Shown: in pieces, positions 51,387-54,472 of the stretch
Layout: every line of letters begins with the position of its first letter
Position numbering within the stretch: position 1 is the first letter of the stretch
Made by a program: the position numbers and the translations under genes
Notes under the pieces: model-generated
What the model saw: only the letters and a program-made list of their open reading frames with translations
Told to the model about the DNA's origin: nothing
Database searches by the model: none
Assembly (NCBI GenBank): GCA_963714145.1
Contig: OY970235.1
Span: 7,571,983 to 7,635,982, forward strand
DNA: 64,000 nucleotides
Origin: an uncultured Actinomycetota bacterium
GTDB lineage: Bacteria > Actinomycetota > Actinomycetes > Mycobacteriales > CADCTP01
Direction of reading: 5' to 3'

Positions 51387-51641
51387 CGAATCGCTACGGA
51401 AATCCTGGACGGCGTGTGGAAGTGGTCGATGAGAGTGGTAGCGTCCCGCGCGTGGCGCGAGCATTGTCGCGTCGCGGGGTGCCGGCCGACTCATGAGGTT
51501 CCGGTCGAGTTCTCCGCTGCACTGCGCAGGTGTTCGGGCATCCCGAACGTCGTCTGTATCGGGCCAGCCGGCACTGTCGGGACGGTCCACCCGCACCGTC
51601 GGCAACGGAACCCGAGCGCTTGACAGGGAAGGTACTGGTAC

Positions 51642-51863
51642 ATGAGCGGCGCAGAGCCGGACTCGCTGGTCTGGAAGAAGAGTTCGTTCAGCGACTCGGG
51701 CGGATGCGTCGAAATATCCCGAGCTGGTTCACTCACCTACGTGCGCGACTCCAAGGTTTCGGATAGTCCTGTTCTGAGCTTCAATTCACACGAATGGGCG
51801 GCCTTCCTTCGCGGCGTGCGTGCTGGCGAATTTGACCTGCCAGTCAGCTCAACCACCGACTGA
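51642..51863 (+). CDS. DUF397 domain protein (WhiJ-associated small protein)
   Basis: WKKSSFSDSGGCVEISR...YVRDSKVSDSPVLSFNSHEWAAFLRGVRAGEFD is the canonical DUF397 pattern. Confidence 0.85.
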   Translation: MSGAEPDSLVWKKSSFSDSGGCVEISRAGSLTYVRDSKVSDSPVLSFNSHEWAAFLRGVRAGEFDLPVSSTTD

Positions 51864-52800
51864 CTCCTCGATGCTGGCCTGTTGGTCCACAGAGCTGCCG
51901 TTGGATTTTTGCGTACCTGCCAGCCGGGCCAACGCGGTATCGATGAGTTCATTCGCCCGCTCTCGCGGTGCGAGTTGCTCGAGTTGAAAAAAGATCTCCA
52001 GGTAGCTGACCGGGTTTACGTCGCTCGGCTCGCCGGGCGACGCCTCGCGGACGACCATGTCACCCTGCGGGTTCTCAATGGAGAGAACGTCTTCATTCTC
52101 GGGTTCAGCGAACTCGAACAGCACATAGGCAATGCGCAATCGTGGGTATAGACCGGCGCTGAACGGTAGAATCCGAACCGTCACGTTCGGTAGCTCGCCT
52201 ACCTCTTTGATGCGGCGTAGTTGGCGGCGCATCGCGTCCGATCCACCCACCGCGCGATTGATCACGGCCTCATCCATAATGAAATGCAGGCTGGGTGGGT
52301 TTTCCCGTTCCAGTAGTTCCTGCCGCTCCATACGGAGATCGACCAGCCGATCGACAACCTTCTTGTCCGGCCCGCGCACCTCGCTGATCACCTCGCGGGC
52401 ATACTCCTCAGTCTGCAGCAGGCCGGGCACCAACAGTGGTTGAAAGCTCCGGATTACGGAAGCGGCCGACTCGTACGCCATGTGCGCTATGAACTCCGGA
52501 GAACCGAGACTCCTTGTACGCGCTGAATGGTGATCGTTCACGCGCTGCCCGTGCGAGATCGAGCAGAGTCAGGACCCGGGGTGGGTCGGCGATGTGGTAG
52601 TGCGCCAGCAAGGCTTTAAGATCGTTGGTGGTTATGCTGACCGCGCCGGTCTCGATACGCAGAAGTTTTGACAGCGACCAGTCCATTGCGGCGGCGACGT
52701 CGCGTTGTGCGTAGCCGGCGGCCTCGCGAGCTTTTCGAAGTTCGCTGCGTAGGCGGCGGCGGTAGATCGTGGGATCTGGGACTGGTGCCATGTCAGGCAT
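51849..52800 (-). pseudogene. WhiJ-like XRE-family regulator (HTH + DUF5753-type C-domain), split by a frameshift near 52505-52515
   Basis: The HTH half (MPDMAPVPDPTIYRRRLRSELRKAREAAGYAQRDVAAAMDWSLSKLLRIETG...) is in ORF 52408..53043. The C-domain (..LGSPEFIAHMAYESAASVIRSFQPLLVPGLLQTEEYAREV..) is in ORF 51849..52541, a different frame. The junction is KES|(R)LGSPEF. ATG at 52800 follows AAGGGG. Confidence 0.7.
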
Positions 52801-53520
52801 TGTGGGCCCCTTGCTGGTGTCTCCTGACGCACGGCACATGGCGTGCGTCAGTTCGTGGCGGTGCACGGAGCCTATGTGCAGAAGGCGCAGCTTGTCGAAG
52901 CTTGGTCGCCAATGGGTGGCCGGCCACCCGATCGCGGCTGCGCGGTGGGGTCCAGATTGCCGGGCGCCAGGTTGCGTAGTATCCACTGGCCTGCGCTCAG
53001 CGTGCCGGCCATCAGTTGGCGCAGCTGTGCTCCGAATGCGCACTGAGGCGTCGTTTCGACCTGACTCTCGTCTGCTTGCGCAGGGCGGTCCGCAGTCGAT
53101 CTAGCTGCTGTATCCGCGTTGCATACAACGATTAGGCGGTCGGCAGGGGGCTGCGCCGCAGCCCGAGGAGTCTCGGCCGGCGGCCGCGCCGAAAGCGTTC
53201 CGGCGGCGTGCCGCTAATCATTTTCGGCGCTTGCACGCAGCAACTAACCGGGCGTACCGTCGGCGCGTATCCGCTAATCATGTTGGTGCGCTGCGAGCCG
53301 CTGTACGGCGAGCGCGAGCGGCCGAAAATTCTCCCCGGTACTAACCGGGATGTGGTCGCTCATTCCCCCACATAACGAGCCGGTCAAGGCTGCGGACAAC
53401 TACGTGCCCTCTGGTGAGGAGAGGCCTGACTGTTGCACACTCCAGGTAATTCCGCTGGCTTTCCGGACGGGCGGTCGGGCAGGTCGGGATTGATCCTCTC
53501 GATATCCGGAGGTCCTGGGC

Positions 53521-53688
53521 ATGCATGTTCGTGGACGCGGCTGTCCGGCCGCAATGACAGCGATTCGCACCTGGGTGGTCGCCGTGGACCGGTGCCTGGC
53601 GACCATCGCCCTAACCGCTGTGGCGCTCGTCACACTATTGCTCGCGCTCACGCTGTTCTACCCGCGTGAGCTCCCGGCGGACGAGTAG
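53521..53688 (+). CDS. 55-aa small membrane protein (below the track's size cut-off)
   Basis: Own translation: MHVRGRGCPAAMTAIRTWVVAVDRCLATIALTAVALVTLLLALTLFYPRELPADE*. GGAGG lies 8 nt upstream of the ATG at 53521. The ORF ends 30 nt before the TIR gene. Confidence 0.4.
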   Translation: MHVRGRGCPAAMTAIRTWVVAVDRCLATIALTAVALVTLLLALTLFYPRELPADE

Positions 53689-53717
53689 TAGGCGCGGAGC
53701 GGAGGGGGCGGGATTCG

Positions 53718-54413
53718 GTGTCCAGCGAGATCTTCGTCAATTATCGGCGGGCCGACAGCGGCAGTTACGGGGCGCTGCTCTACGTCGATTTGGTCCGCTA
53801 CTTCGGTGTGGGCCGGGTCTTCATGGACAGCATGTCGATCCCGGCCGGCAGCGATTTCACCGTAGAGCTGCTGGCGCGGGTGCGGCGGACGCAGGTGGTG
53901 CTGGCGGTCATCGGGCCGGCCTGGCTGACCGCGACGAACGCCCGGGGTGACCGGCTGATCTTCGATCCCGACGACTGGGTGCGGCGTGAGCTGGTGACGG
54001 CGTTCGAGGCCGGCGTGCGGGTGATTCCGGTGCTGACCGATGGCGCCGTGCTGCCGACCGGTGCGGAGCTGCCGGATGACATCGCCGCGTTGGCGCGTTG
54101 CCAGTACCGGTGGCTGCGCGCCGGCGATGTGGTCGCCGACCTGGACCGGCTGCACCGTGATCTTGCCGCTGCCGCGCCGGAACTCGCGGTGCGCCGCCGC
54201 CGCGGCCACCAGCCCAGGGTGGTGGCGATCTGGCTGCCCGGCCGGCGGGCGGTCCGGTGGGTGGCGCACTGGCTGGTCGCCATGGGGGTCGCGTCGGCCG
54301 CGGTGGCGCAGTGCCTGCCGGCGCGGAACCGGCTGCGGAACCGGGTGTGGCACAGGTCATACTTCGCCCGGGAGCACCGCCAAACCCCACCGCGTTGCCG
54401 TAGACAAAGCTGA
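53718..54413 (+). CDS. TIR-domain protein with a hydrophobic C-terminal segment
   Basis: IFVNYRRADSGSYGALLYVDL..., VVLAVIGPAWL and DDWVRRELVTAFEAGVRVIPVL fit the bacterial TIR_2 pattern, including the W..E glutamate. The C-terminal segment is VRWVAHWLVAMGVASAAVAQCL. GTG at 53718 follows GGAGGGGG. Confidence 0.75.
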   Translation: MSSEIFVNYRRADSGSYGALLYVDLVRYFGVGRVFMDSMSIPAGSDFTVELLARVRRTQVVLAVIGPAWLTATNARGDRLIFDPDDWVRRELVTAFEAGVRVIPVLTDGAVLPTGAELPDDIAALARCQYRWLRAGDVVADLDRLHRDLAAAAPELAVRRRRGHQPRVVAIWLPGRRAVRWVAHWLVAMGVASAAVAQCLPARNRLRNRVWHRSYFAREHRQTPPRCRRQS

Positions 54414-54465
54414 GTCGGGTAGGCTCAGCTCGCTTGCTCCGATAGACATCATCTCAGATCTGAGA
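54409..54465. promoter_or_regulatory. HAIR-like inverted repeats upstream of dnaK (candidate HspR operators)
   Basis: GCTGAGT-cgggtag-GCTCAGC lies at 54409-54429 (compare HAIR CTTGAGT-N7-ACTCAAG). The palindrome TCTCAGATCTGAGA lies at 54452-54465, just before the dnaK RBS. Confidence 0.45.
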
Positions 54466-54472
54466 GGTACTC

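Follow-up and report, generated by a model that had tools for sequence, protein, structure and literature searches.

The low-GC stretch between an AIM24-family gene and dnaK is, judging from gene order in its relatives, an old conserved module and not a recent insertion; comparison of strains further indicates that, within this module, only a 1.2-kb sensor cassette is swapped between them. The locus lies in a 64-kb stretch of DNA, hereafter the window, in which a first-pass annotation had described an acquired accessory island directly upstream of dnaK. The genes listed in that annotation were recovered as described, i.e., a DUF397 gene, a frameshifted WhiJ-like XRE regulator, a non-coding stretch of 717 nt, a small ORF with a transmembrane (TM) helix and a TIR gene (Table 1).

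Table 1 Features of the AIM24-dnaK locus, in window coordinates
Feature	Position	Strand	Evidence or remark
AIM24-family gene	50640-51386	+	Pfam AIM24, E 3e-36; conserved left flank
Variable allelic cassette (DUF397 promoter region, DUF397 gene, DUF5753 domain)	51389-52600		Contrast in identity and dS
DUF397 (BldB-like) small protein, 73 aa	51642-51863	+	Pfam DUF397, 65.7 bits, E 4e-18
WhiJ-like XRE regulator (HTH_31 + DUF5753), split by frameshift	51849-52803	-	Pfam
DUF5753 domain	51849-52541	-	Pfam, 159 bits, E 1e-46
HTH_31, in another frame than DUF5753	up to 52803	-	Pfam, 43 bits, E 6e-11
Conserved non-coding intergenic region, 717 nt	52804-53520		No 3-nt periodicity
Candidate regulator promoter, TCGACA-18 nt-TAGGCT	52862-52898	-	Inferred from sequence
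Small ORF, 55 aa, one transmembrane helix	53521-53688	+	GGAGG Shine-Dalgarno
TIR protein, SARM1-like	53718-54413	+	Pfam TIR_2, 36.6 bits (cut-off 28)
HAIR-like inverted repeat of the dnaK promoter, G-CTGAGT-N7-GCTCAG-C	54409-54429		Cross-lineage conservation
HSP70 (dnaK)	54473-56353	+	Pfam HSP70
dnaK-grpE-dnaJ-hspR-clpB operon, conserved right flank	54473-61412	+	Pfam and ORFs
hspR (MerR-type ORF after dnaJ)	58400-58765	+	ORF; Pfam MerR in orthologous loci

The drop in composition noted earlier between AIM24 and dnaK is real, as GC, GC3 and tetranucleotide usage reveal an atypical trough. The segment from 51.4 to 53.8 kb is the GC minimum of the window, with a 1-kb low point of 0.595 at 51.7 kb; 1-kb windows outside the island have a mean of 0.731 (sd 0.033, minimum 0.663). 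The trough is uneven. GC is 0.59 in the DUF397 gene, 0.60 in the XRE gene, 0.65 in the non-coding region and 0.66 in the small ORF, and at 0.71 the TIR gene is near native. GC3 amounts to 0.66 for DUF397, 0.67-0.70 for XRE, 0.77 for the small ORF and 0.875 for TIR, versus 0.91-0.97 for core genes. The tetranucleotide distance of the island is approximately 2.6 sd above the mean, and its GC-normalised dinucleotide bias is not exceptional. Atypical base composition, one hallmark of mobile islands, is thus present (GC3 of 0.66-0.70 versus 0.95). The low GC3 of the regulator pair was however seen again in the three relatives checked (L004, L024 and L025), arguing that it is a stable trait of the pair and no mark of recent transfer.

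Comparison with other genomes, represented mostly by metagenome contigs, revealed the gene order AIM24-module-dnaK-grpE-dnaJ-hspR-clpB in at least eight other lineages. Carriers of the module are L001, L002 (partial), L020, L004, L017 (left side cut), L018, L024, L025 and contig P0123, with TIR identities ranging from 99% down to 54-55% and DnaJ identities down to 77%. At least six other short contigs, matched by their length, also carry both XRE and TIR homologues. Between species, TIR and the HTH have diverged about as much as the flanks. In the outgroup L005 (DnaK 86%), CCG, two AIM24 genes and dnaK lie together, and XRE, DUF397 and TIR are all missing. As L005 lacks the module, a single, ancient addition is probable; L005 is the only outgroup without it, and its locus is rearranged and does not offer a clean empty site. 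The proposal of an acquired accessory island is thus sustained by the composition and by L005, but its recent or accessory status is not, the module occupying the same site in every relative found. The synteny check suggested in the first-pass annotation cuts both ways: the same genes at the same position speak against acquisition, whereas their composition, non-native in L004, L024 and L025, does not.

As noted earlier, ORF, Pfam and repeat searches between AIM24 and dnaK detected no integrase, no transposase and no flanking direct repeats. The tRNA-Gly gene at 47413-47485 is not at the border; it lies at a distance of 4 kb, with two conserved genes in between. No border repeat, tRNA target, mobility gene or presence/absence polymorphism therefore marks the locus as a mobile island. 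A 25-nt match (84%) between the 5' ends of the AIM24 and TIR genes was considered as a border repeat and rejected; it reflects a shared xSEIFxN start and is absent in L024 and L025.

Variation between strains is concentrated in the cassette. Relative to the conspecific L001, nucleotide identity per 100-nt bin is 24-80% in the cassette (52-80% from 51.6 kb) versus 95-100%, mostly 98-100%, in both flanks. Among conspecific contigs, dS reaches 1.06-1.65 in the cassette versus 0 in the adjoining HTH and 0.08 in TIR. The breakpoints are sharp: on the left, conspecific identity is 99% up to position 51388, just past the AIM24 stop codon, and then collapses, and the other breakpoint falls in the HTH-DUF5753 linker. 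The HTH of the regulator is 95-100% conserved versus 68-91% for its C-terminal domain, and DUF397 and DUF5753 co-vary. There are at least three allele classes on near-identical backgrounds. The nearest match of the window allele was found in another species, L004, and allele A is also carried by another species.

The regulator and DUF397 have the features of an XRE-DUF397 pair, in which a single regulator combines an XRE-type HTH at its N-terminus with DUF5753 at its C-terminus and is abutted by a DUF397 gene that is found in every lineage. The two genes are convergent in the window, where their 3' ends overlap by 15 nt, and also in L018, L024 and L025. This differs from the usual Streptomyces layout, in which DUF397 is downstream and co-directional, and counts against the model proposed below. 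One extra base near position 52509, outside any homopolymer, causes the frameshift in the window regulator; this is evident from L001 and L004, whose genes are intact and code for proteins of 315-316 aa. All module genes are under purifying selection, with dN/dS values of 0.01 for the HTH, 0.06 for the C-terminal part of the regulator, 0.14 for DUF397 (versus L004), 0.27 for TIR and 0.61 for the small ORF. A search for TTA codons, indicative of bldA-type control, found none.

The region between the regulator and the small ORF had been described as some 700 bp of non-coding DNA with repeated motifs, which agrees with our analyses. In four species it is 717-723 nt long; in L024 and L025 it reaches about 760-780 nt. 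Approximately 50% of its alignment columns are invariant, versus approximately 20% in an unconstrained stretch, and strongly conserved blocks are found at about 52790-52925, 53255-53315 and 53408-53500. The inverted repeat TGCAC-N9-GTGCA (52862-52880) overlaps the -10 element of the candidate regulator promoter and is invariant in both four- and six-lineage alignments. The repeated motifs are real, CCGCTAATCAT and ACTAACCGGG each being present twice in the window, and a single copy is conserved in the relatives. The window repeats are lineage specific: no direct repeats common to all lineages that might serve as operators were found, and, except for the one that covers the promoter of the regulator itself, no all-lineage operator repeat was detected, a point against the model proposed below. 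A sigma-70 promoter scan yielded no matches.

Other contents of this region were considered and rejected. The lack of 3-nt periodicity and the presence of frame-breaking indels argue against a hidden gene, and the 239-aa ORF called in the L024 spacer has a flat GC3 of 0.63 and is not taken as a gene. A further candidate was an RNA thermometer or Shine-Dalgarno-sequestering leader: pairing of the invariant CCCTCTGG with CCGGAGG is possible and is drawn by RNAalifold. This pairing appeared in the single-sequence folds of only two of the six lineages, with z-scores of -0.5 to +1.1, and is thus not supported. Rfam searches for structured RNAs between 50 and 56 kb at E<=1 returned nothing but one chance snoRNA-like match, and those of the whole window at gathering thresholds returned tRNA only.

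The small ORF is found at the same position in all lineages, with a conserved Shine-Dalgarno sequence, and ends 29 nt upstream of the TIR gene. Its maximal Kyte-Doolittle value over 19 aa is 2.57. In the TIR protein, an Arg-rich linker joins the TIR domain (aa 1-150) to a hydrophobic helix at the C-terminus (aa 177-198), of borderline hydrophobicity (Kyte-Doolittle 1.62). A TM helix in the small ORF always accompanies a TM tail in TIR; exactly where TIR has no tail, the small ORF is 26-27 aa long without a TM helix.

The assignment of the TIR domain is based on a Pfam score above threshold and on its predicted fold. The AF2 model has a pLDDT of 83 overall and above 90 over the domain, and the top Foldseek matches are SARM1 (E 3e-10, TM-score of 0.85-0.88 normalised to the target). 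The profile match to the SARM1 TIR domain (E 3e-14) aligns E91 with the Glu of DWVHKE, which we take to be the catalytic E642 of SARM1. E91 belongs to a W-x-x-x-E helix and is invariant in 38 TIR homologues. Sequence and model thus both point to a SARM1-like TIR domain with its catalytic Glu kept, and a role as an NAD+ enzyme is predicted. The earlier view of the locus as a defence region holds for the presence of a TIR gene but not for a known defence system, as none is recognised by the PADLOC models. With these models, the only match to Thoeris was a weak one to ThsB1 (22.8 bits, E 1e-5). ThsA had no match in the six proteins scanned (the island ORFs and AIM24), and Pfam detected no SIR2 or Macro domain. 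A scan of metagenomes with the TIR protein retrieved two conspecific loci only.

Downstream of the module, the presence of hspR in the dnaK operon and of a HAIR-like repeat at the dnaK promoter identifies an operon of the HspR/HAIR type. The same gene order, with Pfam hits, is found in L017, L024 and L025. The repeat is conserved in five lineages, those of the window, L004, L017, L018 and L005. Relative to the HAIR consensus CTTGAGT-N7-ACTCAAG (PMC6102357), the L005 repeat, CTTGAGT-N7-ACTCAG, matches at 12 of 14 positions and the window copy at only 9 of 14. A candidate -10 element, TAGGCT (54420-54425), lies within the window repeat. The first-pass annotation rightly placed the TIR stop codon within this repeat, the TGA (54411-54413) being part of its left arm. 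It also stated that the island abuts heat-shock regulatory DNA, and indeed an HspR-type operator is adjacent and no terminator-like site was found between the island and dnaK. The overlap of stop codon and repeat is incidental, because the TIR gene of L004 stops 11 codons earlier and that of L017 ends in a different sequence.

We lean towards a model in which the locus is a vertically inherited, three-part module whose regulator controls the small ORF-TIR operon, with DUF397 as a modulator. The ancestor of a clade of uncultured Mycobacteriales-type actinobacteria, of roughly family rank, would have gained the module between AIM24 and dnaK, where it would have remained. Its first part, the WhiJ-like XRE regulator and the convergent BldB-like DUF397, would form a sensor/regulator pair. 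The second, the conserved intergenic region of approximately 720 nt, would harbor the regulator's own promoter/operator and further conserved blocks. The third would be the divergent operon of the small ORF and the SARM1-like TIR enzyme, ending inside the putatively HspR-controlled dnaK promoter. In Streptomyces, WhiJ9 binds intergenic repeats beside its divergent target iosA, and BldB counteracts WhiJ9 (PMC10294661). By analogy, the regulator would bind the intergenic region and control the small ORF-TIR operon, DUF397 would bind or modulate the DUF5753 domain, and TIR, once switched on, would consume or convert NAD+. In the subclade of the window, TIR may be tethered to the membrane together with the small TM protein. 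The DUF397 and DUF5753 half would consist of old divergent alleles exchanged by homologous recombination, and we propose that GC has remained low because of recurrent cassette exchange and weak codon adaptation of the regulatory genes. The fresh frameshift in the window genome may have disabled the switch.

A bolder version of the model, which we consider doubtful, is that of a domesticated TIR-NADase switch in a proteotoxic-stress locus. The WhiJ/BldB-type sensor would time the production of the SARM1-like enzyme, membrane-tethered in one subclade, and the TIR transcript, by extending into dnaK-clpB, would couple NAD+ depletion or signalling with chaperone induction in a dormancy or abortive-infection programme. 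Balancing selection, for instance against triggers or inhibitors encoded by phages or for kin discrimination, would maintain the sensor half (DUF397 and DUF5753) as ancient specificity alleles that can replace one another.

A mobile accessory or defence island recently acquired before dnaK in this strain or species would account for the atypical GC and GC3, for the L005 outgroup without the block and for the presence of a TIR gene, whose more distant homologues (approximately 60% identity) adjoin STAND NTPases, integrases and VMAP genes. Synteny largely refutes this explanation, as all relatives, including those with only 54% TIR identity, carry the block at this site. The flank-like divergence of TIR and HTH, the lack of mobility genes and border repeats, the distance to tRNA-Gly and the negative PADLOC result also argue against it, making it highly improbable. 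Decay of a dying locus under relaxed selection, of which the low GC3 and the frameshift would be symptoms, is scarcely credible; it is already contradicted by the dN/dS values of 0.01-0.27 for XRE, DUF397 and TIR, by intact orthologues in all other lineages and by the invariance of catalytic and core residues.

Two further explanations concern the relationship between the parts. The XRE-DUF397 pair might act on distant genes, with the small ORF-TIR operon expressed independently, constitutively or under HspR/heat control, and their adjacency being historical. In Streptomyces, such pairs broadly influence development as well as the production of antibiotics (PMC10364602). Moreover, in the window genome TIR is intact despite the frameshifted regulator, and TIR may therefore not depend on it, which also weighs against our model. 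A HAIR consensus scan yielded one match, with three mismatches, in the third conserved intergenic block (block C) upstream of the small ORF; it is however at the level of chance (0.47 expected), and its arms are not kept in L024 and L025. Linkage of the two parts in all lineages and conservation of the 720-nt spacer, in both its sequence and its length, make their independence somewhat unlikely in our view. Alternatively, XRE-DUF397 might be a type II toxin-antitoxin system with TIR as a passenger, its hypervariability arising from co-evolution. Comparative genomics predicted such pairs to be toxin-antitoxin systems, as cited in PMC10364602 and PMC4239341, and DUF397 and DUF5753 do change together. 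S. coelicolor nevertheless showed no toxicity when 14 DUF397 proteins were overexpressed (PMC10364602), the window genome tolerates a frameshifted 'antitoxin' beside an intact DUF397, and mobile toxin-antitoxin loci do not have such fixed chromosomal synteny. This reading is thus quite improbable. We retain the three-part module as our working model.

The locus illustrates that a composition trough beside a core operon need not represent a recent island; here, it coincides with a regulatory pair that is resident and of which the sensor half appears to be exchanged repeatedly. If the model is correct, the reach of WhiJ/BldB regulators, until now linked to Streptomyces development, extends to an NAD+-consuming TIR effector. 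The three allele classes on a near-identical background represent a natural experiment on DUF397-DUF5753 specificity, useful for BldB biochemistry. Linkage to dnaK as stable as that of this TIR gene across the clade is unusual among TIR defence genes, a hint of a physiological role, possibly in stress.

Among known systems, the operon downstream resembles actinobacterial HspR/HAIR operons in its dnaK-grpE-dnaJ-hspR order and in the inverted repeat over its promoter, and here it continues into clpB. It differs from typical ones in that the window's clade has a degenerate repeat, inside which an upstream co-directional TIR gene ends. The TIR protein has the fold and the W-x-x-x-E Glu of SARM1-type NAD+ hydrolases, ThsB of Thoeris and AbTir, with SARM1 as its best match. 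Unlike SARM1 it has no ARM or SAM domains, unlike Thoeris no ThsA partner, and unlike all three it has a C-terminal hydrophobic tail and a small upstream ORF. In contrast with bacterial TIR effectors it is not associated with a STAND or Argonaute sensor, the transcription-factor pair being the only candidate sensor. The pair itself is akin to WhiJ/BldB/AbaA-type clusters of Streptomyces, such as iosA-whiJ9-bldB9 of S. venezuelae and the Scr1/Scr2 pairs, which also associate a regulator with an XRE-type HTH and DUF5753 with an adjacent DUF397. As in iosA-whiJ9, whose intergenic region carries regulator binding sites, a third gene is divergent across an intergenic region. As in the Streptomyces pairs, the partners diverge in step within species (PMC10294661, PMC10364602, PMC4239341), the bldB/hpb pairs of Streptomyces pratensis being hyper-divergent (PMC4239341). 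In those clusters, however, the divergent target is abaA or iosA rather than, putatively, a small ORF and a TIR enzyme, and DUF397 does not converge on the 3' end of the regulator. Furthermore, the module is present in a single copy within the 64-kb window, fixed beside dnaK across the clade, rather than as many paralogues, and its intergenic region is unusually long and conserved. We infer that the locus is a variant of the already known WhiJ/BldB-type loci, of which the TIR-containing version is new.

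The interval between AIM24 and dnaK has the lowest GC content anywhere in the window (0.595 at 51.7 kb in 1-kb windows); GC is 72.7% for the window overall, and outside 51.39-54.47 kb its mean is 0.731 (sd 0.033, minimum 0.663). The first-pass annotation had described this GC trough, the gene content and the split XRE regulator correctly, as well as the absence of mobility genes: ORF listing, together with tRNA and repeat searches, associated neither an integrase or transposase nor a tRNA or border repeat with the interval. Codon-position GC separates its parts, indicating that the trough is mainly the regulator pair (DUF397 and XRE) plus non-coding DNA. 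The tetranucleotide distance of the island lies about 2.6 sd above the mean, and its GC-normalised dinucleotide bias is unremarkable. That distance is on a par with the high-GC region at 5.5-7.5 kb; the surrounding stretch of very high GC at about 5000-9000 (0.77-0.80) has the window's largest tetranucleotide deviation, at least equal to that of the island. The 5′ ends of AIM24 and the TIR gene share a 25-nt direct match (84%; 50638-50662 and 53716-53740), both proteins starting xSEIFxN. This match, missing in the distant lineages L024 and L025, is probably coincidental.

Features of the AIM24-dnaK interval, from ORF listing and Pfam, with divergence from L004 (another species) and L001 (conspecific)
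Feature	Position	Strand	GC3	dN/dS vs L004	dS vs L001	Remark
AIM24	50640-51386	+				Pfam
DUF397	51642-51863	+	0.66	0.14	1.06	Pfam
XRE regulator		-	0.67-0.70			Pfam; two frames
XRE, DUF5753	51849-52541	-		0.06	1.65
XRE, HTH_31	up to ATG at 52803	-		0.01	0
Spacer	52804-53520					gene-free, 717 nt
Spacer block a	52862-52898	regulator's				TCGACA-18-TAGGCT; invariant TGCAC-N9-GTGCA over -10
Spacer block b	~53255-53315
Spacer block c	~53408-53500					CCCTCTGGT...GCACACTC...ATTC.CTGG...CGGGCGGT
Small ORF	53521-53688	+	0.77	0.61		55 aa
TIR_2 protein	53718-54413	+	0.875	0.27	0.08	Pfam
dnaK	54473-56353					then grpE, dnaJ, hspR, clpB
hspR	58400-58765					MerR-type, within dnaK operon
Core genes			0.91-0.97

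The first-pass reading was that of an accessory or defence island inserted here. Look-ups of exact proteins and scans of sequence collections yielded five conspecific contigs (L001, L002, L003, L019 and L020), with flanks 98.5-99.6% identical to the window at the nucleotide level. Identity of the TIR protein is 92% on the near-conspecific contig encoding P0123, 78% in L004 (MAG 'Mycobacteriales bacterium Holy_96'), 77% in L018, 62-66% in L017 and 54-55% in L024 and L025, for which DnaK, DnaJ and GrpE give 93%, 77% and 58-65%. As far as each contig reaches, all relatives agree in the order CCG/Fe-S (-), AIM24 (+), DUF397 (+), XRE (-), long spacer, short ORF, TIR (+), dnaK-grpE-dnaJ-hspR-clpB, and at least six further short contigs, matched by their length, bear both XRE and TIR homologues. 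The same genes thus occupy the same place, but their composition there is not native either: L004 shows a GC trough of 0.57-0.61, and regulator-pair GC3 is 0.78-0.80 in L024 and 0.63-0.65 in L025, where core genes reach 0.95-0.97. Between species, TIR and HTH have diverged at synonymous sites about as much as the flanks, or more.

This synteny refutes recent mobility; at neither strain nor species level is the module accessory. What remains of the insertion claim, which is only partly supported, is a plausible ancient gain. In the one outgroup, L005 ('Corynebacteriales' MAG, DnaK 86%), CCG and a tandem pair of AIM24 genes lie together with the dnaK operon in another orientation, and XRE, DUF397 and TIR are missing from that region. 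The proximity of AIM24 to dnaK is therefore older than the module, although the orientation differs; the L005 AIM24 paralogues (9190-9872 and 10001-10759) are divergent from dnaK. The module was probably acquired once, long ago, and has since been inherited vertically. In the left flank, the CCG/Fe-S protein is 88-89% identical to that of the window in L024 and L025 and just 79% in L004, a ranking opposite to that of DnaK, DnaJ, GrpE and TIR, which hints at recombination or rate differences. A tRNA-Gly(CCC) gene lies at 47413-47485 (-), 0.6 kb left of the CCG/Fe-S gene, and in L024 a phage-type integrase (1-23) immediately precedes the equivalent 186-aa gene and CCG block; this neighbouring site may be occupied by an integrative element in some lineages.

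Within the species, what varies is a 1.2-kb allelic cassette of the module. Window and L001 are 99% identical up to 51388, two bases beyond the AIM24 stop codon, and 24-80% identical per 100-nt bin over 51389-52600 (52-80% from 51.6 kb). Identity returns to 95-100% (mostly 98-100%) at about 52600 and stays there across TIR and dnaK, with the right breakpoint in the linker that joins HTH to DUF5753. Allele A, that of the window, is nearest to the allele of L004 (DUF397 76%, DUF5753 93%); the conspecific contigs bear allele B, which is 59% (DUF397) and 73% (DUF5753) identical to A and clusters with L017 and L018. A third class, on the P0123 contig, has a 98% identical HTH and a C-terminal domain 73-74% identical to A and B alike. 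Among the closest regulator homologues the HTH is 95-100% identical and the C-terminal domain 68-91%. DUF397 and DUF5753 are thus exchanged jointly, leaving the DNA-binding domain and its surroundings in place, a pattern expected if DUF397 contacts DUF5753. It matches that of Streptomyces pratensis strains, whose bldB/hpb (DUF397/XRE) pairs belong to the small number of genes that differ by more than 5%, and diverge in step (PMC4239341). Old allelic lineages under balancing selection and repeated gene conversion from relatives both fit the cassette. L025 carries two DUF397-like copies (4481-4654 and 5128-5295) between AIM24 and the regulator, the extra one in tandem in an 889-nt gap.

The split of the window's XRE is due to one surplus base near 52509 (GAG-T-CTC, coding strand), outside any homopolymer, relative to the intact L001 and L004 genes. 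In the public annotation, too, the 10-Mb source contig has only a 210-aa C-terminal fragment of the regulator. The frame is otherwise well kept, which marks the frameshift as recent.

In four species the spacer measures 717-723 nt; in L024 and L025 it is longer, about 760-780 nt. It has no codon periodicity and contains single-base indels. Across four species about half of the alignment columns do not vary, compared with about 20% in one stretch evidently free of constraint; a 239-aa ORF called in L024 was rejected as spurious, its codon-position GC being flat. Three blocks are conserved across all six lineages. Block a is a candidate regulator promoter with a classic auto-operator layout, and block c is followed by a conserved GGAGG and the small-ORF start. 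The repeated motifs noted in the first-pass annotation are real (CCGCTAATCAT and ACTAACCGGG, twice each) but not conserved in relatives; no direct-repeat family common to the compared lineages was found in the spacer, nor any structured RNA by Rfam search. Invariant CCCTCTGG (53408-53416) is complementary to invariant CCGGAGG (53504-53510), the small-ORF Shine-Dalgarno site about 95 nt downstream; their pairing, drawn in the consensus fold, was discarded for want of z-score, thermodynamic, comparative or covariation support. Inside block c, upstream of the small-ORF-TIR operon, CCTGACT-N7-ACTCCAG (53425-53445) is the sole match in 64 kb to the HAIR consensus at three or fewer mismatches (chance expectation 0.47 per window; arms not kept in L024/L025). 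A perfect 16-nt palindrome, GGGTGGCCGGCCACCC (52919-52934), is confined to the window's species and not palindromic in L004.

At the junction with dnaK, the TIR stop codon (54411-54413) does lie in the left arm of a HAIR-like repeat, G-CTGAGT-N7-GCTCAG-C (54409-54429), which is kept in five lineages. The L005 version, CTTGAGT-N7-ACTCAG, is close to the published consensus CTTGAGT-N7-ACTCAAG. TIR ends 11 codons earlier in L004 and differently in L017. Its last codons are translated promoter DNA, and the overlap of stop and repeat is not a conserved feature. No terminator-like site was found between TIR and dnaK, so the TIR transcript could possibly read into dnaK. Between repeat and dnaK Shine-Dalgarno site lies a perfect 14-nt palindrome, TCTCAGATCTGAGA (54452-54465), which L017 preserves perfectly and L004 and L018 almost perfectly, with CTCAG/CTGAG half-sites resembling HAIR arms.

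For the TIR family 351 relatives are detectable; proteins of 150-300 aa make up most of the matches listed. An alignment of 38 members shows no variation at F6, Y9, R10, D13, W87 and E91, and the family profile matches the SARM1 TIR domain (E 3e-14), aligning DWVRRE to SARM1 DWVHKE. The AlphaFold model (pLDDT >90 across residues 10-150) matches structures of the SARM1 TIR domain, the target-normalised TM-scores being 0.85-0.88. E91 invariance, profile match and model together argue that the catalytic apparatus of an NAD+-cleaving TIR is apparently intact, and the protein would be predicted to be active. A helix of borderline hydrophobicity (1.62) is predicted for residues 177-198. Conservation of this tail, with its terminal motif W-[HR]-R-S-Y-F, is confined to the dnaK-linked subclade, where the upstream ORF has 51-55 aa and a strong TM segment (Kyte-Doolittle 2.6). 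In L024 and L025 both are missing: TIR has no tail, and the upstream ORF (26-27 aa) no TM segment. Their joint presence or absence suggests that the two membrane segments act together. More distant relatives (~60% identity) adjoin STAND-WD40 genes, integrases or VMAP genes, indicating that the family was drawn from the actinobacterial conflict-system pool. The defence-island label itself was not borne out, PADLOC models giving only a weak ThsB-like match for TIR and no partner.

We considered whether the XRE-DUF397 pair is a type II toxin-antitoxin system. That reading is weakened by the lack of toxicity of 14 S. coelicolor DUF397 proteins (PMC10364602) and by the window itself, in which an intact DUF397 stands alongside a broken regulator. 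The description that fits the locus best is that of a WhiJ/BldB-type regulatory module, found throughout the clade, which combines a SARM1-like TIR effector with an exchangeable sensor cassette. Our literature search found no link between WhiJ, DUF5753 or HspR and TIR domains. Among described systems, the WhiJ/BldB/AbaA-type cluster comes nearest. WhiJ9 of S. venezuelae binds intergenic repeats beside its divergent target iosA and activates it; when BldB, a DUF397 protein without DNA-binding activity, is lost, iosA is de-repressed about 750-fold (PMC10294661). The present locus has the same three-part logic and by analogy would work in the same way. It differs in that the divergent gene is a TIR operon, DUF397 and the regulator gene converge, the conserved spacer is very long, and the whole is fixed in position at dnaK.
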